Positions 6,622-49,115 of a stretch of DNA of 64,000 bases are shown here, piece by piece. Source of the stretch: a bacterium (lineage in GTDB: Bacteria; Patescibacteriota; Minisyncoccia; Minisyncoccales; CG1-02-41-26). The stretch covers positions 24,404-88,403 of the forward strand of contig JAUSHZ010000007.1 of assembly GCA_030648255.1 (NCBI GenBank), read 5' to 3'. The translations under genes and the position numbers were made by a program. The notes beneath the pieces are model-generated. The model did no database searches, had not been told where the DNA came from, and saw only the letters and a list, made by a program, of their open reading frames with translations. Numbering within the stretch: position 1 is the first letter of the stretch; the number at the start of each line of letters is the position of its first letter.

Positions 6622-7377
6622 CTAAATATTTTTTACCATAGCAGTAAATTCTTTTATATTCAATGAAGCGCCACCAACTAAGAGGCCATCAATTGCTTCA
6701 TTTTCTAAATATTTATTTGCGTTGTCTGACCCAACGCTTCCACCGTATAAAACTCTTACTTTCTCTTTGGCTTTTCTGCCGTAAATTTCAGCTATTAATT
6801 TTTTTATATATAAAGCCATTGTTAAGGCGTCGTCGGGAGCACAGGTTAATCCTTGGTTTGTGCTAATTGCCCACAAGGGCTCATAGGCTATAACAAGCTC
6901 TCCTACTTGTTGTTTTTTAATAGCTTTTAAGCTTTCCCTTAGCTTTTTCTCAACAATTTGAAATGTTTTGCTTTGGTTTCTTTCTTCTAATGTCTCGCCA
7001 ATGCAAACAACTGGTGTTAAACCCGTGCTTAACACGGCTTTTACTTTTTTGGCAGTCATCTCATTTGTTTCTCCCATTACCATTACTCTTTCAGAATGAC
7101 CTAAAATAACATACTTAACTCCTAAATTTTTTAGCATTGTTGGCGAAACCTCGCCCGTGAATGCTCCTTGATTTTCCCAAAAACAATCTTGCGATCCAAT
7201 TTTTACTGCCCCAACTCCAAAAACTTTTTTTGCCTCTGCTAAATAAACAAAGGGGGGGCAAACCACAACTTCTATTTTATTGTTTTTTATCCCCGCTCTC
7301 AATCCAACCATCATCTTTTGCGCCTCTTTTAGGGTTGTTGGATTACACTTCCAATTTGCAATAATTAGCTTTTTCAT
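6622..7377 (-). CDS. tpiA: triose-phosphate isomerase
   Basis: IANWKCN, GHSERV, VCIGETLEER motifs. Confidence 0.9.
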   Translation of the reverse strand: MKKLIIANWKCNPTTLKEAQKMMVGLRAGIKNNKIEVVVCPPFVYLAEAKKVFGVGAVKIGSQDCFWENQGAFTGEVSPTMLKNLGVKYVILGHSERVMVMGETNEMTAKKVKAVLSTGLTPVVCIGETLEERNQSKTFQIVEKKLRESLKAIKKQQVGELVIAYEPLWAISTNQGLTCAPDDALTMALYIKKLIAEIYGRKAKEKVRVLYGGSVGSDNANKYLENEAIDGLLVGGASLNIKEFTAMVKNI

Positions 7378-8584: not shown

Positions 8585-9337
8585 TTATTTTGTAAGAATT
8601 TCTGCTCCTTTTCTTGTAATGGCTATGGTGTGCTCGAAATGGCAAGATAGGGAGCCGTCGGCTGTTTTATAGCCGAAGCCGTCATTAGCTTTTCTTAATT
8701 TCCAATTACCCATTGTTACCATTGGCTCAAGGCAAAAAACCATGCCAACCTCAATCTTTTCACCAGAGTTTCGCTTGCCATAGTTAGAAATTTTTGGGTC
8801 TTCATGCAATGCCTTGCCAATACCATGCCCGCACAAATCCCTAACCACATTAAACCCTTGGTATTCAACAAACCTTTGCACAATATTGCCAATATCTCCA
8901 AAAGTATTACCCGGCCTTGCTTTAGCAATGGCTAGTTTCAACGCTTTTTGCGTGGCTTTAATAAGCCGAATCTTTTCCGAATCCTCTGCTTCAGGCTTGC
9001 CCACCAGAGTAGAAAAAGCGTAATCAGAAAAATAATCTTGATATTTAATTCCTAAATCCAAACAAAGCAAATCGCCCTGCTTTAGAATATAACCATCGGG
9101 CACCCCATGCACCACCATATCATTAATAGAAATACAAGAAACACAAGGAAATCCTTCGTAATCTTTAAAGGCTGGTTCGGCCCTATATTCTAAAATAAGA
9201 TTTTCACACGCTCTGTCTAATTCTTTAGAAATAATGCCCGGAGCTATCATTGGCTTTATTTTTTCAATAATTTCAGCCAAAATTTTTCCAGCCTCTCGCA
9301 TTATTTTTATCTCATTTTCTGTTTTAATAATTATCAT
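8585..9337 (-). CDS. map: methionine aminopeptidase type I
   Basis: 250 aa, metal ligands D..D..H..E..E pattern. Confidence 0.9.
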   Translation of the reverse strand: MIIIKTENEIKIMREAGKILAEIIEKIKPMIAPGIISKELDRACENLILEYRAEPAFKDYEGFPCVSCISINDMVVHGVPDGYILKQGDLLCLDLGIKYQDYFSDYAFSTLVGKPEAEDSEKIRLIKATQKALKLAIAKARPGNTFGDIGNIVQRFVEYQGFNVVRDLCGHGIGKALHEDPKISNYGKRNSGEKIEVGMVFCLEPMVTMGNWKLRKANDGFGYKTADGSLSCHFEHTIAITRKGAEILTK

Positions 9338-12221: not shown

Positions 12222-12409
12222 GTTAGTAATTCTTAATTGAACGGCGAATTTATGAGCTGTGAAATTTAGAATTTCTTACACCCCGTGGAGTAGAAATTTG
12301 CTCTGCAAATTTCTATTTTAAATTTTTTACTAAAAATTTAAAATTACTCCACAGGGTAAATTCCGCTTGCCAATCGCGCTTCGATTACTCAGCACTCTTG
12401 GAGCGTCAT
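12222..12409 (-). repeat. repeat copy secY|rplO (X, B, R1)
   Basis: direct sequence match to family. Confidence 0.9.
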
Positions 12410-12841
12410 TTACTTTACTGTTCCTCCTGCTTTTTCTATTTTAACTTGAGCAGCTTTTGAAACCAAGCAATCCTCAATAGTAAGTGATTTAGTAAGTTCG
12501 CCATTTCCTAAAATTTTTACCAATGGAACTTTGCCTATAATTTTTCTAATTAATTTTTTATCAACTAAAACTTCCGGGGTAATTTTGTCTCCTTTTTCAA
12601 AATTCTTTTCTAAAACATTAAGATTTATAGAGGCTGTTTCTTCTCCTCTTAATTCCTGCCTGTATCCTCTTATTTTTGGATATCTTTTAATAATCTCTCT
12701 CATAAAGGGTTGCATTTTTCTCCCAGCCCTTGATTTTTGGCCTTTGCAACCCTTCCCACAGTAAGTTCCCTTCTTGCCTCCTCTGCCAATTCTTTTTCTA
12801 TCTTTTGTCTTATTATTTGGTTGTATTTCGTGAATTTGCAT
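12410..12841 (-). CDS. rplO: 50S ribosomal protein L15
   Basis: 143 aa, Gly/Arg-rich N-term. Confidence 0.9.
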   Translation of the reverse strand: MQIHEIQPNNKTKDRKRIGRGGKKGTYCGKGCKGQKSRAGRKMQPFMREIIKRYPKIRGYRQELRGEETASINLNVLEKNFEKGDKITPEVLVDKKLIRKIIGKVPLVKILGNGELTKSLTIEDCLVSKAAQVKIEKAGGTVK

Positions 12842-13040
12842 GTTAGTAATTCTTAATTGAACTGCGAACGATTAGTGAGCTGTGAAATTTAGAAGTACTT
12901 ACACCCTGTGGAGTAGAAATTTGCTCTGCAAATTTCTGTTTTAAATTTTTAGTAAAAAATTTAAAACTACTCCACGGGGTAAATTCCGCCTTCCACTCAA
13001 ACTTCGGCTAATCGCCTCGTTTTCGTGGGGCGTCATTTAA
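12842..13040 (-). repeat. repeat copy rplO|rpsE (X, B, R2); tail 13008-13040 is translated as rpsE C-terminus
   Basis: ..cggctaatcgcctcgttttcgtggggcgtcattta in frame with S5. Confidence 0.88.
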
Positions 13041-13526
13041 CTGTTGTAAGGCCGCTACTGTTGCCCGGGCGATATTTAATTTATTTCTTGATCTTGACAA
13101 TAACTTTGATGATATATTCCTAATTCCAGCTAAACTGCAAATAACTCTTACCTGGCCGCCAGCCACCAACCCCCTACCTTTTGCCTGAGGCCTTAACAAA
13201 ACCCTTGCTGGGCCATACTTTGCTGTAACCTCATGGGGAATTGTTTCCTCAAACATTGGAACAGAAATTAAATTCTTCTTGGCCAACCGAGTTGATTTTT
13301 CAACAGCAATTGCCACATCAGGCCCCTTGGCCACACCTAATCCAATTTTTCCCTTTTTATTGCCAACCACCACAACTGCCCTAAACCTCATTTGCTTTCC
13401 TCCCTTTGTTACTCTTGTAACTCTGGCTAAATCTAAAACCACCGAGTCGAACTCATCTTTCGGTTTTGCTGGAAATTGACCTCTTCTTTCTCTATTAAAT
13501 TTTCCTTGTTGTTGCTGTTGTTCCAT
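13008..13526 (-). CDS. rpsE: 30S ribosomal protein S5 (last ~11 aa encoded by repeat-derived sequence)
   Basis: S5 dsRBD plus C-domain; tail ..[10 protein letters not shown] read through the cgtcattta motif. Confidence 0.9.
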   Translation of the reverse strand: MEQQQQQGKFNRERRGQFPAKPKDEFDSVVLDLARVTRVTKGGKQMRFRAVVVVGNKKGKIGLGVAKGPDVAIAVEKSTRLAKKNLISVPMFEETIPHEVTAKYGPARVLLRPQAKGRGLVAGGQVRVICSLAGIRNISSKLLSRSRNKLNIARATVAALQQLNDAPRKRGD

Positions 13527-13720
13527 GTTAGTAATTCTTAATTGAACGGCGAACGATTAGTGAGCTGTGAAGTTTAGAAGTACTTACACCCTGTGGAGTA
13601 GAAATTTGCTCTGCAAATTTCTGTTTTAAATTTTTTACTAAAAATTTAAAACTACTCCACGGGGTAAATTCCGCTTGCCAATCGTGCCTCACCTGCTGGC
13701 TCGCACTCTTGGAGCGTCAT
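13527..13720 (-). repeat. repeat copy rpsE|rplR (X, B, R1)
   Basis: sequence match. Confidence 0.9.
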
Positions 13721-14065
13721 TTAAAATTGTAGCCCACCTTCTCTCGCTCCTTCAGCCAACGCTTTTATTCTACCATGATATTTAAAGCCTCCTCTATCAA
13801 AAACAACTTTTTTAATCTTTTTTTCTATTGCTAATTTAGCAATTTCCTTACCAACATTAAAAGCCTTTTCTAATTTTTTCAGTTTTTTCTCTTTTGAATC
13901 GTTTGCTGAAATAATAGTTTTGCCTTTTGTGTCGTCAATTATTTGAGCATAGATATGCTGGTTTGATTTAAATACGCAAAGCCGAGGCGCGGTTGGTGTG
14001 CCAATGACTTTTGCCCTGATTCGGCTGTGTCTTCTTGTTCTTTTTTGTTGTTTTGTCTGTTGCAT
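13721..14065 (-). CDS. rplR: 50S ribosomal protein L18
   Basis: 114 aa. Confidence 0.9.
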
Positions 14066-14258
14066 GTTAGTAGTCGTTAATGAATGAGTGGCGATTAGCC
14101 ACGAGTGAATTTACGAATTCTTACACCCTGTGGAGTAGAAATTTGCTCTGCAAATTTCTGTTTCAAATTTTTAGCAAAAAATTTGAAACTACACCACGGG
14201 GTAAGTCCTCCGTAAGCTCTGGCTTCGGCTAATCGCCTTGCCATCGCTAACGGATTAC
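14066..14258 (-). repeat. repeat copy rplR|rplF (W, B, R3)
   Basis: sequence match; gtggc-gatta-gccac. Confidence 0.9.
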
Positions 14259-14819
14259 TTATTTTCCAGCTTTCTTGCCCTCTTTCTTGCGGACAATTTC
14301 ACCAAAATATCTAACGCCCTTGCCTTTGTATGGCTCTGGCTTTCTTAAAGCTCTTATTTTTGCTGCAAACTGGCCAACCTGTTGCTTGTCAAAACCAAAA
14401 ATATTTATAAATTGTTTTTCTATTTTTATAGACAAACCCCCTGGAATCTCCATAAAAATAGGGTGAGAAAAACCCAAGTCCAATCTTATTTTCGATTCTC
14501 CCTCCATAGCAGCCTTGTATCCAACTCCCCTAAGCTCTAATTTCTTTTCAAATCCAACTGAGACGCCATGAACATGGTTCAATAATAAAGCAGTGGTTAA
14601 CCCCCAGAGAGCAGGAATTTCTTTGCTCTCTTTTTCCTGTCTGCCGACAGGCAGGGCTGGCTTTACAACTAAAATATTACCTTGTTGTTCCACAACAATA
14701 CCAACAGGAATTTCCTGTTTTATCTCTCCCTTAGGCCCTTTAAATAAAACATTATCTTTTTCAAGAATAACTGTTACGCCTTGGGGTATTTCTATTGGTT
14801 TTTTTCCTATTCTTGACAT
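14259..14819 (-). CDS. rplF: 50S ribosomal protein L6
   Basis: MSRIGKKPIEIPQGV...; track prefix MKTHTISNM is artefact. Confidence 0.92.
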   Translation of the reverse strand: MSRIGKKPIEIPQGVTVILEKDNVLFKGPKGEIKQEIPVGIVVEQQGNILVVKPALPVGRQEKESKEIPALWGLTTALLLNHVHGVSVGFEKKLELRGVGYKAAMEGESKIRLDLGFSHPIFMEIPGGLSIKIEKQFINIFGFDKQQVGQFAAKIRALRKPEPYKGKGVRYFGEIVRKKEGKKAGK

Positions 14820-15021
14820 GTTAGAAATTGTGTGAGTTTTCAAGCTATAATCTTTTTTATGGCTTGAAAACTCATTACAAGTTCTTACACCCTGTGGAGT
14901 AGAAATTTGCTCCGCAAATTTCTGTTTTAAATTTTTTACTAAAAATTTAAAACTACTCCACGGGGTAAGGTATCCGTAAGCTCGGGCTTCGCCTGCTGGC
15001 TCGCCCTCGCTAACGGCTACC
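14820..15021 (-). repeat. repeat copy rplF|rpsH (Z, B, R3)
   Basis: 13-bp hairpin tgagttttcaagc/gcttgaaaactca. Confidence 0.9.
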
Positions 15022-15411
15022 TTACCACACTTCCACCATTAATTCACCTCCGACTTTATCTTTTCTGGCTTGCTTATCTGTTAATAAACCATTGGTGGTT
15101 GAAACAATAGATAAGCCATAGCCACTTCTTACCTTTGAAATCTCGTCTGCTTTTTTATAAATTCTTTGCCCTGGCTTTGAAATCCTTTTAAACCCAGAGA
15201 CGGCTGGCATCTTTTCATTATATTTTAACTGTATTTTTATAATTTGAAACGGCTTTTTCCCTTTTTTCTTGCAATCCAAAATAAGCCCCTCTGCTTTTAA
15301 AATTTCAGCAATTGAGTATCTTAGTTTTGAAAAAGGAACATCGGTTGTTTTATGGAAAACAACTTGAGCGTTCCTTATTCTATTAAACATGTCTGTTATT
15401 GGATCGGTCAT
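15022..15411 (-). CDS. rpsH: 30S ribosomal protein S8
   Basis: MTDPITDMFNRIRNA... Confidence 0.92.
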   Translation of the reverse strand: MTDPITDMFNRIRNAQVVFHKTTDVPFSKLRYSIAEILKAEGLILDCKKKGKKPFQIIKIQLKYNEKMPAVSGFKRISKPGQRIYKKADEISKVRSGYGLSIVSTTNGLLTDKQARKDKVGGELMVEVW

Positions 15412-15612
15412 ATTAGAAGTTGTGTGAGTTTTCAAGCTATAATTTTTTTTATGGCTTGAAAACTCATTACAAATTCTTATACCCCGTGGAGTAGAAATTT
15501 GCTCTGCAAATTTCTGTTTTAAATTTTTTACTAAAAATTTAAAACTACTCCACAGGGTAAGTCCTCCGTAAGCTCTGGCTCGGCTGTTGCCTCGCCATAG
15601 CTAACGGATTAC
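15412..15612 (-). repeat. repeat copy rpsH|rpsN (Z, B, R3)
   Basis: sequence match. Confidence 0.9.
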
Positions 15613-15798
15613 TTACCAAGACGACTTCTTAATCCCGGGTATTTCTCCTTTACTTGCCATTTCCCTAAAACAAATTCTGCACAAACCAAAGTCCCTTATA
15701 AATCCCCTGTACCTTCCGCACTTAAAACATCGCCTCACTATTCTTGAAGAAAACTTTGGTTTTCGGTTTGATTGATTAATTAATGATTTTTTTGCCAT
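15613..15798 (-). CDS. rpsN: 30S ribosomal protein S14 type Z (zinc)
   Basis: 61 aa, CxxC..CxxC. Confidence 0.9.
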
Positions 15799-16020
15799 GT
15801 TAGTGATTCTTAATTGAACGGCGAGCGATTAGCGAGCTGTGAAATTTAGAATGACTTACACCCCGTTAAGTGCGAGCGATTAGCGAGCTACTTAACTGGG
15901 GTTTCGTTGTATTCTTACCCCACCCCAGTGAAGTAGAATTTGAGTACAAATTCACTTCACGGGGTAAGGCTCTGCTACCGCTCAACCTTCGCCTTCGGCT
16001 CGGCTTCACGGGCAGAAGCC
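15799..16020 (-). repeat. repeat copy rpsN|rplE (X, A, R2-like); tail 15975-16020 translated as rplE C-terminus
   Basis: taccgctcaaccttcgccttcggctcggcttcacgg ~ R2 consensus. Confidence 0.85.
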
Positions 16021-16577
16021 TTAAATGGAAACCCCAGCAATCTTAATAATGCAGCGCCTTCTTCCTTTGTTTTGGCTGTTGTTGAAATTGTTACTTCTAA
16101 TCCAAAAATGCCTTTCTCTTTTTCAACTTTCAATTCAGGAAATGGAACATACTCTTTAAATCCAACTGTAATATCTCCTTGGCTTGTCATAGATTTCTCT
16201 TCAACGCCCCTAAAGTCTCTAGACCTTGGCAAAACAACCCAAATCAACTTCTCTAAAAAATCATACATTCTTTTCTTTCTTAAGGTGCAGCTGGCTCCAA
16301 CCGCCATACCTTCTCTTAGCTTGAAAGCAGCAATTGATTTTTTTGCTTTATTTAGAGATGGTTTTTGCCCGGTAATAGCGGCTATTGATTGAGCAATATA
16401 TTCTTCCGCTTTTTCTCTCTCACTGGCGCTTTTTCCAATAACCATTTTGCCAAAACCGCAATTAACAACAATCTTCTTTATTTTTGGCACAGCCATAACA
16501 GAACTATACCCGAATTTCTTCGTCATTTCAGGAATAACTATTTTATTGTATTGCTCTTGTAATTTCATATTTTTCAT
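15975..16577 (-). CDS. rplE: 50S ribosomal protein L5 (C-terminal ~14 aa encoded by repeat-derived sequence)
   Basis: start taken at MKNMKLQEQYNKIVIPEM after 22-bp hairpin; tail ASAREAEPKAKVER. Confidence 0.85.
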   Translation of the reverse strand: MKNMKLQEQYNKIVIPEMTKKFGYSSVMAVPKIKKIVVNCGFGKMVIGKSASEREKAEEYIAQSIAAITGQKPSLNKAKKSIAAFKLREGMAVGASCTLRKKRMYDFLEKLIWVVLPRSRDFRGVEEKSMTSQGDITVGFKEYVPFPELKVEKEKGIFGLEVTISTTAKTKEEGAALLRLLGFPFKASAREAEPKAKVER

Positions 16578-16586
16578 GAAGCTGTC

Positions 16587-16641
16587 GAAGCTGTTGAAAC
16601 CGAGCTTCTGGAAGCCCTTGAAGCTCGGTTTCAACAGCTTC
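16587..16641 (-). repeat. perfect 22-bp inverted repeat (distinct from main family) directly upstream of rplE
   Basis: gaagctgttgaaaccgagcttc-tggaagccctt-gaagctcggtttcaacagcttc. Confidence 0.9.
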
Positions 16642-16655
16642 AGGCTCCATAGCTT

Positions 16656-16961
16656 TTAAATATCAGCTTTGCATTTCTTGCAAATTCTAACTTTATTTTC
16701 TCCTTCTACCTTATAGCCAATTCTTGTGGGTTTATTGCACTTAGGACATAAAGCCTGCGCTTTGGAGGCATTCATTGGAAAAGAAATTTCCACAATTTGC
16801 CCTTTTTCTCCTTGTTTTTTTGGCTTTTTATGCGTCTTTTTTATATTAACTCCTTCAACCAAAATCATTTCCTTAGATGGAAAGCTTTTTAAAACCTTGG
16901 CTTTCTTGCCTTTATCCTTGCCAGCGATTATTAAAACATTGTCTCCTTTTTTGATTCGCAT
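16656..16961 (-). CDS. rplX: 50S ribosomal protein L24 with C-terminal zinc ribbon
   Basis: MRIKKGDNVLIIAGKDKGKK..; CPKC..CKKC. Confidence 0.9.
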   Translation of the reverse strand: MRIKKGDNVLIIAGKDKGKKAKVLKSFPSKEMILVEGVNIKKTHKKPKKQGEKGQIVEISFPMNASKAQALCPKCNKPTRIGYKVEGENKVRICKKCKADI

Positions 16962-17177
16962 GTTAGAAATTGTGTGAGTTTTCAAGCTATAATCTTTTTT
17001 ATGGCTTGAAAACTCATTACAAGTTCTTACACCCTGTTAAGTGCGAGCGATGAGCGAGCTACTTAACTGGGGTTTGTTTATATTATTCTCATACCCCAGT
17101 GAAGTAGAATTTGATTACAAATTCACTTCACGGGGTTAAGCGATTGTAATGCTCGGCTATCGCCTCGCAGACAATCG
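16962..17177 (-). repeat. repeat copy rplN|rplX (Z, A, R4)
   Basis: sequence match; IR agcgattgt/acaatcgct at rplN TAG. Confidence 0.9.
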
Positions 17178-17546
17178 CTAAACAACATCTTTAGCCATGG
17201 TTATTATGGCATCAAATCCTTTTTCTTTTAATTCTCGAGGAACCGGCCCTAAAATTCTATTTCCTTTAGGCTGTTTCTGATCATTTAAAATACAGCAAGC
17301 ATTGTCATCAAATCGCAAATAGGAACCGTCTTTTCTTCTAAACGGACTCTTTTGCCTTACAATAACGGCCTTAACAACCTGATGTTCCTTAACATCGCGC
17401 CTTGGCTCTGCTTTTTTAACCGCTGCAACAATTATGTCGCCAATTCTTGCATATTTCTTTCTTGTGCCTCCAGGCACCCCAAAACACTGAACTATCTTAG
17501 CTCCAGTATTATCTGCCACATTTAACATTGTTCTTAACTGAATCAT
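17178..17546 (-). CDS. rplN: 50S ribosomal protein L14
   Basis: MIQLRTMLNVADNTGAK. Confidence 0.93.
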   Translation of the reverse strand: MIQLRTMLNVADNTGAKIVQCFGVPGGTRKKYARIGDIIVAAVKKAEPRRDVKEHQVVKAVIVRQKSPFRRKDGSYLRFDDNACCILNDQKQPKGNRILGPVPRELKEKGFDAIITMAKDVV

Positions 17547-17550
17547 GGGT

Positions 17551-17778
17551 TTATTTTTTTACTACTTTCCAACACTTATCTTTACTCAAAGGCCTTGACT
17601 CTTCTATTAAAACCTTGTCTCCAATTTCAAAAATATTGCCCGCTGTATCTGCCTTATACTTTTTCGAAGATGTGTATCGCTTTCTGTATTTTGGATGCAC
17701 CTTTATTGTTTCCACTTTCACCACAACAGTGTTTGTCATTTTATTGGAAACTATTTGTCCTTTTAATATCTTTTTCAT
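17551..17778 (-). CDS. rpsQ: 30S ribosomal protein S17
   Basis: 75 aa. Confidence 0.9.
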   Translation of the reverse strand: MKKILKGQIVSNKMTNTVVVKVETIKVHPKYRKRYTSSKKYKADTAGNIFEIGDKVLIEESRPLSKDKCWKVVKK

Positions 17779-17966
17779 TTTTTTATTAAAGTTAATATGC
17801 GAGCTATATTTCTTCTTGATGTTCTTATCTGTCTAATATCCTTTATTTTTCCAGCAGCCAAATCAAATCTAAAAACTCGAAGATTTTCTTGCTTTTCCCT
17901 CAATGATTTTTGCAAATCATCTTTGCTTAATTTTGAAAGCTCTTTTAGCGCTTCTTGTCTTTTCAT
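17775..17966 (-). CDS. rpmC: 50S ribosomal protein L29
   Basis: 63 aa coiled coil. Confidence 0.88.
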   Translation of the reverse strand: MKRQEALKELSKLSKDDLQKSLREKQENLRVFRFDLAAGKIKDIRQIRTSRRNIARILTLIKK

Positions 17967-17967
17967 A

Positions 17968-18375
17968 CTATTTTTTTACAAATTTAACTTTAATTGGCAA
18001 TTTATCTGAGGCCTTGCCAAACGCCTCAACAGCAATCTTTTCATCCACTCCATCAATTTCAAATATCACTCTACCAGGTTTTATCGGAAAAACATAATGG
18101 TCAACAGCCCCCTTGCCTCCACCCATTCCAACTTCTCCGCCTTTTTGCGTAATTGGTTTTTGGGGGAATATCCTAATCCATAGCTTACCCTTTCTTTTCA
18201 TTGCTTTTGTAATAGCTTTTCTAGCTGATTCCATTTGGTTGGCTGTAATCCATTTTGTTCCCATTGATTTCAATCCAAAAGAACCATAGGAAACTTCTGT
18301 TCCTCTTGTATCATTTCCTTTGCTTGTGCCCTTATGCCATTTCCTATGTTTCATTTTTCTTGGTTGTGTCAACAT
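17968..18375 (-). CDS. rplP: 50S ribosomal protein L16
   Basis: MLTQPRKMKHRKWHKG... Confidence 0.92.
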   Translation of the reverse strand: MLTQPRKMKHRKWHKGTSKGNDTRGTEVSYGSFGLKSMGTKWITANQMESARKAITKAMKRKGKLWIRIFPQKPITQKGGEVGMGGGKGAVDHYVFPIKPGRVIFEIDGVDEKIAVEAFGKASDKLPIKVKFVKK

Positions 18376-18566
18376 GTTAGAAGCTGTGTGAATTTTCAAA
18401 TTTAATGATTTGAAAATTCATTACAGATTCTTACACCCCGTGGAGTAGAAATTTGCTCTGCAAATTTCTGTTTTAAATTTTTAGTAAAAAATTTAAAACT
18501 ACTCCACAGGGTAAATTCCGCTTGCCAATCACGCTCGCCTGCTGGCTCGCGCTCTTGGAGCGTCAT
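18376..18566 (-). repeat. repeat copy rpsC|rplP (Y, B, R1)
   Basis: sequence match. Confidence 0.9.
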
Positions 18567-19226
18567 TTAATTAAAGCGTTCTCCCTTATACATCCAAACC
18601 TTAACGCCAATAACCCCATAAGTGCAGTGTGCCTCGCATGAGCCATATTCAACTATGGCTCTTATTGTTTGAAGCGGAAGTCGCCCATCTTTTAACCATT
18701 CTCTTCTGGAAATTTCAACTCCATTTAACCTACCTGATACCTCAACCTTCACGCCTTTTATTTCTTTTTGCTCAGCTGTTTTGCTTATTGCCATTTTCAA
18801 AACTCTTCTAAACGGCACTTGCTTTTCGATTTGGCCAGCCATCCATTGAGCTGTTAAGCTGGCTGAAAGCCATGGGTTTCTTATTTCAATAATTTCTATT
18901 TTAATGCTGTTTTTATCTGTTTTTATCTTCCCCTTTACTTTTGATATTGCTTTTTCAATTCCCATTTTCAAATCCTCAACTCCTTTGCCCCCCCTGCCGA
19001 TAATCAAAGCGGGTCTGGAAGTTTTAATAATAATTTTTAAGGCAGCGGATGTTCTCTCTATCTCTACTTCCTGAATAATACCCGCGGGTAGCTTCTTAGT
19101 GATAAACTGCCTAATTATAAAATCCTCCTCTAAGTAAACAGGAAAATTGTTCTTATAAAAGCCTCTTGAAAGCCAGTCTTTCATTTCTCTTATCTTAAAA
19201 GATTTTGGGTTGACTTTATGGCTCAT
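18567..19226 (-). CDS. rpsC: 30S ribosomal protein S3
   Basis: KH domain, 219 aa. Confidence 0.93.
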   Translation of the reverse strand: MSHKVNPKSFKIREMKDWLSRGFYKNNFPVYLEEDFIIRQFITKKLPAGIIQEVEIERTSAALKIIIKTSRPALIIGRGGKGVEDLKMGIEKAISKVKGKIKTDKNSIKIEIIEIRNPWLSASLTAQWMAGQIEKQVPFRRVLKMAISKTAEQKEIKGVKVEVSGRLNGVEISRREWLKDGRLPLQTIRAIVEYGSCEAHCTYGVIGVKVWMYKGERFN

Positions 19227-19576
19227 ACTTTTGATTTATCTTGTTTAAAAATATCTAAATTTAAAGTAATATTAGAAGTTTTCTTTTCTATTCTACAAGC
19301 CCTGCCCCTAGCTCTGGCCCTCCATCTTTTAAGGGTTCTGCCCTCATCAACTTTAATTAAGGAAATAAACAAATCTTTTTCTTCTAATTTAAAATTGTTT
19401 TTAGCGTTGGCCACTGCTGAATCCAAAAGCTTTTTTAAAGGCAAGGCTCCTTTTTTAATGCAAAATCCTAAAGATGCTTGGGCTTTCCCAGCAGATTTTC
19501 CTCTAACCATATCAGCCACCAAGCGAACTTTTCTGGGTGATATTCTTAAATTGTTTAATTTTGCTATAACTTGCAT
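19223..19576 (-). CDS. rplV: 50S ribosomal protein L22
   Basis: MQVIAKLNNLRISPRKVRLVADMVRGK; 18-aa track prefix is repeat read-through. Confidence 0.9.
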   Translation of the reverse strand: MQVIAKLNNLRISPRKVRLVADMVRGKSAGKAQASLGFCIKKGALPLKKLLDSAVANAKNNFKLEEKDLFISLIKVDEGRTLKRWRARARGRACRIEKKTSNITLNLDIFKQDKSKV

Positions 19577-19776
19577 GTTAGAAATTGTGTGAGTTTTCAA
19601 GCTATATTTCCTTATGGCTTGAAAACTCATTACAAGTTCTTACACCCCGTGGAGTAGAAATTTGCTCCGCAAATTTCTGTTTTAAATTTTTAGTAAAAAA
19701 TTTAAAACTACTCCACAGGGTAAATTCCGCTTGCCAATCGCGCTTCGCCTGCTGGCTCGCGCTCTTGGAGCGTCAT
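19577..19776 (-). repeat. repeat copy rpsS|rplV (Z, B, R1)
   Basis: sequence match. Confidence 0.9.
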
Positions 19777-28366: not shown

Positions 28367-29317
28367 TTACTTACACTGCTGGGGTTTCACAGAGGTGCAG
28401 GTCAATGTTCCGTCAAGTGCTGTGCACCAAGTAATTCCTGCTTTGTCTGTATCTCCAATTCCCAAACAGCCAGTCAACGCTCCACTTCCTATCATAACTG
28501 TTGTCGAAGCAGAAGACGACACCTCCAAATTATACGCCGGCGTTGTCGTCCCAATCCCGATATTACCCTTCAATATTGTTTTCGTAATACTAGTATTTCC
28601 TAAAGTTACAGAATTGCTGCCATTGCCTATAGCACTCGCTCCTATTACTATTTCATTGGTATTCCCGTCTGCTCCAGCCATTGCGTTATAACCCTCATAA
28701 ACAGAGTTACTGGAAGTTGTATTGGCGGTAACACCATCGGCAATATAAACACCAGCCTTCGTGCCATTGGCGGTGTTTTGATAACCAGTATTATAGTAGA
28801 GAGCCTGCATACCGTTAGCGGTATTTTGATAACCAGTAGTGTTTGAGAAAAGAGCCTGCATACCGTTAGCGGTATTGTAATCGCCAGCAGTATTAGAATA
28901 AAGGGCATACACGCCATTAGCTGTATTTGTATATCCTGTAGTGTTAGAGTAGAGAGATCTATAACCAACAGCAGTATTATAACCCGCTTCATTTGTACTG
29001 GCTGTTGAACTTGCCATCCCCGCTTGATAGCCAACAAAAGTATTGTATAAGGATACATCATAATGACCTGCCTGGTAGCCAATATTAGTTTTAAAGCCAA
29101 TATTATTAAAATCAATTAGATCAGTAACCGCTATACCAAGAGAGGTTAGATATGTAGTAGTAGTTGTAGCTAATGTGCTAGTACTAAAAACATCTAGAGC
29201 TCCCCCAATAGAAACATTATTACCAATTGTGGTAACAGCTTGGGCGACTATAACTACGCAAAAAACCGTTGTTATGACGCTCACTACTACAGTAAAAATT
29301 TGCTTTTTATTATTCAT
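28367..29317 (-). CDS. membrane-anchored surface protein with GYxNTANG repeats (tail-fibre / YadA-head-like) and Cys-rich C-terminus
   Basis: N-terminal TM; ~8 tandem ~14-aa repeats NTANGxxALYSNTxGY; GNIGIGTTTPAYNLEV resembles tail-fibre neck motif. Confidence 0.55.
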   Translation of the reverse strand: MNNKKQIFTVVVSVITTVFCVVIVAQAVTTIGNNVSIGGALDVFSTSTLATTTTTYLTSLGIAVTDLIDFNNIGFKTNIGYQAGHYDVSLYNTFVGYQAGMASSTASTNEAGYNTAVGYRSLYSNTTGYTNTANGVYALYSNTAGDYNTANGMQALFSNTTGYQNTANGMQALYYNTGYQNTANGTKAGVYIADGVTANTTSSNSVYEGYNAMAGADGNTNEIVIGASAIGNGSNSVTLGNTSITKTILKGNIGIGTTTPAYNLEVSSSASTTVMIGSGALTGCLGIGDTDKAGITWCTALDGTLTCTSVKPQQCK

Positions 29318-29448
29318 AGCTTCTTCATTCTTAATTTTTTAGTTTATATCCTATACTACCTTTTACACTTAGTCAAACAAAAAACTAACACTTTTTGTTA
29401 GTTAAATTTTTACTTCACTTTACCCGCGGTCGCCGGTATTTTGAAGCA

Positions 29449-48956: not shown

Positions 48957-49115
48957 ATTTTTTTATTATATTATAATTATATTAGAGCTGGCAATAATAG
49001 CTTTTAGGAGACCACGAGGGTACCCTCCGCGCATGTGGAGGTCTTAATACTTGTGGTAAATCCTAGGAGACGCCACTCTATAAAAATCATCTCTTTTGAG
49101 GTGTTTTTTATTATT

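Follow-up and report, generated by a model that had tools for sequence, protein, structure and literature searches.

The window analyzed here, a stretch of 64,000 nucleotides (contig JAUSHZ010000007.1 of assembly GCA_030648255.1, positions 24,404 to 88,403 of the forward strand), comes from a low-GC Patescibacteria (CPR) genome and carries a ribosomal-protein superoperon (rpsL ... rpoA) on its minus strand, with no rpmD between rpsE and rplO. The tuf gene shares 98% identity with its counterpart in MAG GCA_043797465.1, and the best L5 matches include 'Candidatus Pacebacteria'. Within the spc operon, rplE (uL5) is located between rplX (L24) and rpsN (S14), as identified by tblastn against the genes of the relative L007, and its open reading frame spans 15975-16634 on the minus strand, with an alternative ATG at 16575-16577. 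The core of the protein, residues 1-183 (MKLQEQ...GFPFK; 16020..16568, minus strand), was assigned from its position between L24 and S14, from L5 matches in a phmmer search of the PDB (best E = 8e-50, aligned over residues 2-183), and from the presence of PF00281 and PF00673 (Ribosomal_L5 and Ribosomal_L5_C) in 120/120 L5 homologues. Solved bacterial L5 chains all align up to residue 183 and end 0-1 residue later, and among 165 related L5 loci from genomes and metagenomes usually 0-3 residues follow the PF[KQR] motif; judged by these alignments, GFPFK is the canonical L5 C-terminus. In the window, no stop codon follows it: after K183 (AAG, 16020-16022) come 14 more codons (ASAREAEPKAKVER; 15978..16019, minus strand), a tail that is missing from orthologues without the repeat element described below, and then a TAG at 15975..15977, the translation ending ...LLRLLGFPFKASAREAEPKAKVER. 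The original prediction had described a 14-aa C-terminal extension with the canonical end just upstream, and the reading frame, the coordinates, the TAG, the solved chains and the 165 loci all agree with it. In the spacer upstream of the gene (L24-L5, 84 nt; window 16578-16655, minus strand) we also observed a near-perfect GC-rich hairpin of ~22 bp (GAAGCTGTTGAAACCGAGCTTC ... GAAGCTCGGTTTCAACAGCTTC), which is not detected by the hairpin-A model introduced below; the same junction measures 4 nt in L007.

An alternative genetic code as the source of the tail was ruled out: TGA, TAA and TAG each stop translation at the C-termini of orthologues throughout the operon, TGA thus being a working stop, and therefore the standard code applies. 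The same L5 junction arrangement is found on four independent metagenome contigs (L001-L004), so the tail is not a sequencing artefact. When a 45-aa tail query was used in a protein search, only short L5 fragments were matched.

The spacer between L5 and S14 is made up of one copy of a three-part, sense-oriented element, consisting of modules A, B and C followed by TAAC and the ATG of rpsN. Module A (15965..16023, minus strand) is a GC-rich hairpin of four stems (P1-P4) with GA/GA-type internal loops between them, recognized by a covariance-model match, by its fold and by covariation, and its segments read, in order, UAAGGCU-U-CUGC-CCGU-GA-AGCC-GA-GCC-GAA-GGC-GAA-GGUU-GA-GCGG-UA-GCAG-AGCCUUA. 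Compared in dot-bracket form with the other copies, this hairpin fits the stem-loop architecture of the family exactly, and it scores 68.1 bits (E = 2e-18) against the hairpin-A covariance model, a mid-range score for a copy that was itself among those used to build the model. Module B (15860..15964, minus strand) is predicted to fold here into two hairpins, B1 at 15923-15964 (CCCCGTGAAGT..ACTTCACTGGGG) and B2 at 15860-15902 (ACCCCAGTTAAGT..ACTTAACGGGGT), and the same module B subtype occurs upstream of rpsD, rpsM, rpmJ and rplX. Module C (15803..15859, minus strand) is a further predicted hairpin whose stem closes 4 nt short of the start codon of S14, followed by the TAAC spacer (15799-15802) and the ATG of rpsN (15796-15798; together 15796..15802, minus strand), an ending shared with the other copies of the family. 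The downstream gene, rpsN (S14, 61 aa; 15613..15798, minus strand), encodes a protein 98% identical to L007 S14. The whole element has a predicted fold of -92 kcal/mol (z = -6.4), and a second whole-element fold compared with shuffled sequence gave z = -6.6.

The L5 tail and module A overlap almost entirely. The first three nucleotides of hairpin A, the element's TAA (16021..16023, minus strand), consist of the last T of TTT (F182) and the AA of AAG (K183), i.e. ttT AAg; the tail codons then span the 5' arm, the inner stems with the loop, and part of the 3' arm; and the TAG used by rplE is the 2-nt 3' bulge (UA) of the hairpin together with the G that opens the next stem. As the element's TAA is one base out of frame at rplE, translation stops only at this UAG.

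Seventeen gene junctions of the superoperon hold an element of this kind, 170-250 nt in length and always in the sense orientation. The 17 elements fall within window positions 1275-27817 (minus strand), at superoperon junctions plus the secY, infA and alaS-orf477 junctions, with their 3' ends (the C of CTAACATG) at 1282, 1950, 2531, 2873, 4743, 12226, 12846, 13531, 14070, 14824, 15416, 15803, 16966, 18380, 19581, 22646 and 27555, all on the minus strand. Sixteen copies end in CTAACATG and the 17th in a variant, CTAATATG, and in every case the element finishes as CTAAC-ATG (CTAAT-ATG before rpsH), the ATG being the start codon of the next gene. Module A opens with P1 (UAANN/NNUUA), which begins with TAA and ends with a TTA adjoining the CCCC of module B; P1 is followed by an optional GA/GA loop (present in the commonest subtype), P2a, a 2-nt 3' bulge, P2b, a GA/GA loop between P2 and P3, GA/GA(A) between P3 and P4, and a terminal loop. 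In module B, a long stem (TTACCCCGTG...CACGGGGTGTAAG) is topped by variable hairpins, and module C, of which there are four subtypes in the window, closes 4 nt ahead of the ATG. Individual elements are mosaics of module subtypes, which suggests recombination among element copies.

Across 20 copies of module A, 89% of cells are paired, with compensatory changes at 15/20 pairs, compared with at most 46% paired in slid controls. G.U pairs outnumber A.C mismatches (27 vs 10), an excess expected for sense-strand RNA. The hairpin-A covariance model gave 16 credible matches in the window, which all lie on the minus strand between 1 and 28 kb; window 28-64 kb has none, and the plus strand has a single weak match (22-bit) over module C. 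An Rfam search of the elements returned nothing at the gathering threshold, and an E-value search gave only chance matches to microRNA-precursor hairpins far below gathering; elsewhere in the window (48983-49080, plus strand) there is an Rfam match to DUF3800-V RNA at 41.9 bits, above its gathering score. Mimicry of tRNA or tmRNA was rejected because ARAGORN finds nothing in the elements, and a conserved small open reading frame (e.g. TAA-ATG ACG CTC...) was rejected because indels among the copies shift both frame and stop positions. No intrinsic terminator is predicted on the element sense strand, terminator-like hairpins being found only antisense, in module B. On the plus strand of window 12285-19684, terminator-like hairpins with T-runs number 27 vs 7.3 expected, mostly antisense to the operon and in module B. 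A scan of viral contigs with the module B core gave 0 matches, and in the literature on intercistronic or structured repeats in CPR/Parcubacteria ribosomal-protein operons we found no description of such an element. Just upstream of rpsL, four tandem 51-nt units (window 28739-28939) lie within an open reading frame of 323 aa (28367-29338, minus strand).

In 10/16 detected copies, the TAA formed by the first three nucleotides of hairpin A is the stop codon of the upstream gene (offset 0); in addition, a TAG at the hairpin base is the stop of two junction genes, infA stops at the TGA of TAAATGA, and two junction genes stop upstream of the element. In two genes the reading frame continues into the element, by 29 nt in rpsE (offset -29) and by 46 nt in rplE (offset -46). 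The S5 run-on (rpsE; 13008-13039, minus strand) enters an R2-type hairpin A via tTA AAT GAC and ends at a TAG where two other R2 copies have GAG, and the native S5 tail known from relatives has been replaced in the window. The original prediction had called L5 a second case of an element-derived extension in an essential ribosomal protein, and S5 bears this out. Of the junction proteins compared with their element-free L007 orthologues, all except L5 and S5 end at, or within a few residues of, the end of the orthologue. At the S5-L15 junction of L007, a relative otherwise element-free, the sequence at about 12600-12665 resembles a collapsed element, its 5' part (aaggacgccccc) being similar to aatgacgcccca and its 3' part (gtaagaattactaaaATG) to ttaagaattactaacATG, which suggests, from sequence likeness, a past loss of the element by internal deletion.

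It had further been claimed that the tail is encoded by repeat sequence, and specifically that the 3' end of rplE matches the tail of the R2 repeat. The first claim stands, given the 68.1-bit membership in hairpin A, the shared architecture and the covariation. The second stands in part: the similarity is real (alignment score 19, with shuffles scoring 3.8 +/- 1.6 and 0/5000 shuffles as high), but in a structural alignment the R2-type copies, although the nearest subtype in the window, are only 61-64% identical to the L5 hairpin, whereas the copies in L001-L004 share 70-97% identity with it. Judged by these alignments, the L5 hairpin is a distinct subtype within the same structural family, rather than a copy of R2.

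A comparison of 120 L5 homologues and 165 L5 loci showed a homologous tail only in the window and in four relatives (P0001/L001, P0008/L002, P0009/L003 and P0075/L004), making it lineage-specific. The L5 of P0001 is 91% identical to that of the window and has an identical tail, and the tails of the remaining carriers read ASARETESRIKAER (P0008), ASTREAETKVKAER (P0009) and GLVREDEPKAKSER (P0075). A structured element lies directly 3' of L5 in 4/4 of these loci, and the rplE-type stop is at the same position in each, as TAG in L001-L003 and as TAA in L004. Relatives without an element at the L5-S14 junction (L005/6, L007/L010, L008, L009, L091) have L5 proteins 77-87% identical to that of the window and no tail; their L5 ends in GFPFK followed by K, KK, KS, KP or Q, with a spacer of 2-8 nt to S14. 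A tail kept in relatives that lack the repeat family was looked for and not found: the model detected no hairpin-A copy in L007/L010, and L007 has no copy anywhere in 20 kb and no tail. The sharpest comparison is between L003, with tail and element, and L009, with neither, as their L5 cores are 95% identical at the amino acid level and 89% at the nucleotide level. The loci with a tail do not group as nearest relatives of one another, which together with the L003/L009 contrast implies that gain, loss or exchange of the element-plus-tail allele takes place over short times.

When the hairpin-A model was applied to 171 ribosomal-protein loci (1.94 Mb), copies were found in the closest relatives only, with 15/15 matches on the sense strand. 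The ribosomal-protein operon of the window holds 17 copies of the element vs 0-2 in relatives. A scan of GTDB genomes, among whose species representatives the clade is sparse, yielded one close relative only, which is the same contig as L007. In the ribosomal-protein operon of another close relative (L005, 4442-4907), a hicB/hicA toxin-antitoxin pair is located between rplC and rplD.

The tail region could be under constraint as peptide, as RNA, or as both, and the pattern of substitutions speaks to this. Pairing holds for 90.5% of cells in the five L5-type copies, and double compensatory changes occur at 8/19 stem pairs, for example CUGCC...GG-UA-GCAG to CCACC...GG-UA-GUGG, and these changes alter the amino acids of the tail (ASA, AST, GLV). 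Variable columns are distributed over codon positions as 5:7:9 in the tail vs 73:49:133 in the L5 core, so that position 2 of the tail codons is about as variable as position 3, and the ratio of synonymous to non-synonymous codon differences is 21:48 in the tail vs 481:450 in the core (Fisher p = 7e-4). Six tail residues are invariant (R-E..E...K.E-R), and they correspond to invariant nucleotides (CGN-GAA, GAG, AAG, GAR-CGN) that build the hairpin's GA loops and stem bases. Between the window and L001, 1 of 42 tail nucleotides differs while the core differs by 12%, a near-identity that fits constraint on the RNA, but also a dual constraint or a recent exchange. L004 still has the tail although its L5 core is only 58% identical, and with six residues invariant a peptide function under selection may add to the constraint on the RNA. 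Taken together, these comparisons support the view that the region evolves as an RNA helix and not as a peptide, with the constraint acting on the RNA, and the most plausible view of the peptide is that it is a by-product of the hairpin which is tolerated. In an AlphaFold2 model built from a 53-sequence alignment, the core has a pLDDT of ~90, whereas residues 187-197 fall below 50 with no secondary structure, and the tail is therefore predicted to be disordered.

Comparable run-ons occur at other junctions in related genomes. At L5 of L170 (ttT AAG TCA GCC GTT AGC...), a 22-aa run-on passes through a different hairpin-A subtype (1591-1663), and at L5 of L171 the out-of-frame TAA is read as aTA AAg (about 1020-1130); in both, the element TAA is out of frame within the last two L5 codons, and the resulting tails (SAVSEGKRSEAKPELTDDLPST and NPLAKASPDVHRGVRTRKFTRA) derive from other element subtypes. 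S17 has a run-on of ~13 aa (KQLLSEGKPQAKPED-like) in L005, L008, L009 and L090 at the S17-L14 junction (gTA AAG...), through hairpin A copies at 9104-9163, 9097-9181, 244-303 and 7068-7126, respectively, and ends at a TAG in the same 3' bulge of hairpin A as L5; the S17-L14 junction of the window has no element. From their sequences, the run-ons with out-of-frame TAA at L5 (L170, L171), S17 and S5 appear as independent recurrences of the rplE arrangement.

Very probably, then, the L5 tail is a by-product of translating hairpin A, with the element's UAA having been joined one base out of frame. Normally the UAA that starts hairpin A, within stem P1, would serve as the stop of the upstream gene. 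At rplE, the element would have been joined with this UAA lying over the last two conserved L5 codons (UUU AAG), one base off frame, and ribosomes would then read 14 further codons through the hairpin, and terminate at the UAG formed by the 2-nt 3' bulge and the following G. The tail is presumably made, as the sequence has no earlier in-frame stop. That it recurs across five lineages, and that solved ribosomes include longer uL5 C-termini, suggests that it is harmless, presumably a tolerated, disordered appendage on the central protuberance of the ribosome.

We weighed three other accounts of the tail. It could be a selected, functional extension of uL5, e.g. a charged arm to 5S/23S rRNA or a CPR-specific feature, with the likeness to the hairpin a secondary matter, or with the 3' end of L5 as the source that seeded the repeats. 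Such a function would be in keeping with the persistence of the tail across five lineages whose L5 cores share 58-91% identity, with its invariant R-E..E...K.E-R residues, and with the longer C-termini of uL5 in solved ribosomes such as 8crx_f (210 aa). Yet the tail is missing in ~160/165 related L5s, including that of L009, whose core is 95% identical to that of the carrier L003; its second codon positions vary like its third and its non-synonymous changes predominate, unlike in the core; its conserved residues coincide with the invariant GA loops and the stems of a hairpin that recurs at 16 further junctions; it is predicted to be disordered; and other hairpin subtypes yield unrelated tails on L5, S17 and S5. 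We therefore consider a selected peptide improbable.

We think it very improbable that the tail is not, or only rarely, made, with the mRNA being cleaved in or before hairpin A, or a frameshift at UUU AAG leading onto the UAA, and mature L5 ending approximately canonically. The great stability of the element, its placement, resembling that of intercistronic processing sites elsewhere, and the presence of an out-of-frame UAA exactly at the canonical L5 end would all suit such an outcome. The in-frame stop is nevertheless conserved at the same bulge in five L5-type copies and in the S17 run-ons, as expected only if ribosomes reach the bulge, and cleavage upstream of the stop would give non-stop mRNAs for an essential protein. 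A programmed -1 frameshift onto the out-of-frame TAA was rejected, because no X XXY YYZ slippery heptamer is present in the zero frame of L5 around CCA UUU AAG GCU. The possibility that the repeat once lay downstream of an intact stop codon, later mutated or mis-sequenced, is hardly credible: metagenome assemblies may hold errors in repeats, but four contigs assembled from different samples show this junction independently, nothing remains of the native K/KK-stop-spacer, and the hairpin begins inside the F-K codons.

As for how a translated hairpin came to adjoin L5, the comparisons with relatives suggest that the arrangement arose via acquisition or exchange of the element, and not by evolution of the L5 end in situ. 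The element is not flanked by the junction sequence of element-free relatives (aag aag taa taa ttttt ATG); the native K-stop-spacer has been replaced and not displaced, which argues against a simple insertion. No terminal inverted repeats are apparent, as the predicted folds pair within modules and leave the termini unpaired with each other, and the only possible target duplication (TAA or TAG at the element 5' end, TAA inside the 3' CTAAC) is not a clear one. Presence/absence polymorphism is seen between close relatives (L003 vs L009), but copies in both orientations or at dispersed sites, as in MITEs or RPEs, are not seen in the window or in the loci of relatives.

Repeat-derived coding sequence in housekeeping proteins is already known from the RPEs of Rickettsia, whose in-frame fusions have been reviewed (PMC10969869). 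Like RPEs and intragenic MITE-type repeats (ERIC, BOX), the element described here is a palindromic repeat on the scale of ~150 nt with many copies per genome, and like RPEs it gives coding sequence to housekeeping proteins without destroying them. RPEs insert inside open reading frames, add internal segments and are scattered over unrelated genes, whereas the window element is strictly intercistronic, always sense, within the window confined to the superoperon, and directly abuts stop and start codons; a coding contribution arises only where its TAA falls out of frame, no terminal inverted repeats are apparent, and its helices covary like RNA. A second resemblance is to REP/BIME sequences, which likewise place stable hairpins immediately 3' of stop codons within operons. 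REP/BIME are enterobacterial extragenic palindromes found just after stop codons; individual REPs measure ~35 nt, occur in both orientations, are mobilized by RAYT transposases, and were reportedly found by Liang, Rudd and Deutscher in 2015 to affect the stability of upstream mRNA and, when very near the stop, translation termination. Unlike REPs, the window element is 170-250 nt long and three-part, its first stem includes the stop codon, and 4 nt separate its end from the ATG. Structured RNAs placed exactly between cistrons are also known as the RNase III sites of phage T7 and as mitochondrial 'tRNA punctuation', the latter abutting stop and start codons. The likeness of our element, which is known here from sequence, to these processing signals is one of placement, and thus an analogy only, and its modules, unlike the mitochondrial ones, are not tRNA-like and have no Rfam family. 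With regard to the tail itself, PDB 8crx chain f (210 aa) and chloroplast uL5c likewise tolerate residues after PF[KQR], a likeness in the presence of extra residues, and we know of no case in which such lineage-specific uL5 tails derive from repeats.

The strict sense orientation, boundaries that coincide with stop and start codons, and covarying helices point to selection at the RNA level, and candidate roles for the element include intercistronic processing or stability, or translational coupling kept by looping out. A wider interpretation, which we offer tentatively and hold to be possible though doubtful, is that the elements form a hitherto undescribed class of sense-strand, structured intercistronic RNA modules of a Patescibacteria clade, serving as operon 'punctuation' and spread by a route of RNA or recombination instead of classical transposition, with the L5 tail as their footprint. 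Each module would bring its own stop (the UAA in P1) and end 4 nt before the AUG, and its three hairpins, joined by linkers of 0-1 nt, would loop out ~170-250 nt and thereby keep stop and start close. Such modules might act as processing or stability sites, or as devices coupling termination to reinitiation, and the lineage of the window would have expanded them to 17 junctions.

For the organism, the L5 tail is a small and probably neutral change to an essential ribosomal protein, and the element family is the more unusual and more novel object of the two. The tail illustrates how the spread of a structured repeat can alter the ends of core translation proteins, i.e. L5 and S5 here, and S17 and L5 variants in relatives. 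'Lineage-specific extensions' of CPR ribosomal proteins may accordingly be RNA-encoded by-products, and not adaptations, which matters for annotation and for phylogenomic trimming. The L5 tail also offers a simple proteomic or ribosome-profiling handle on the element, and the family is a promising candidate for a novel type of intercistronic RNA module among bacteria with reduced genomes.
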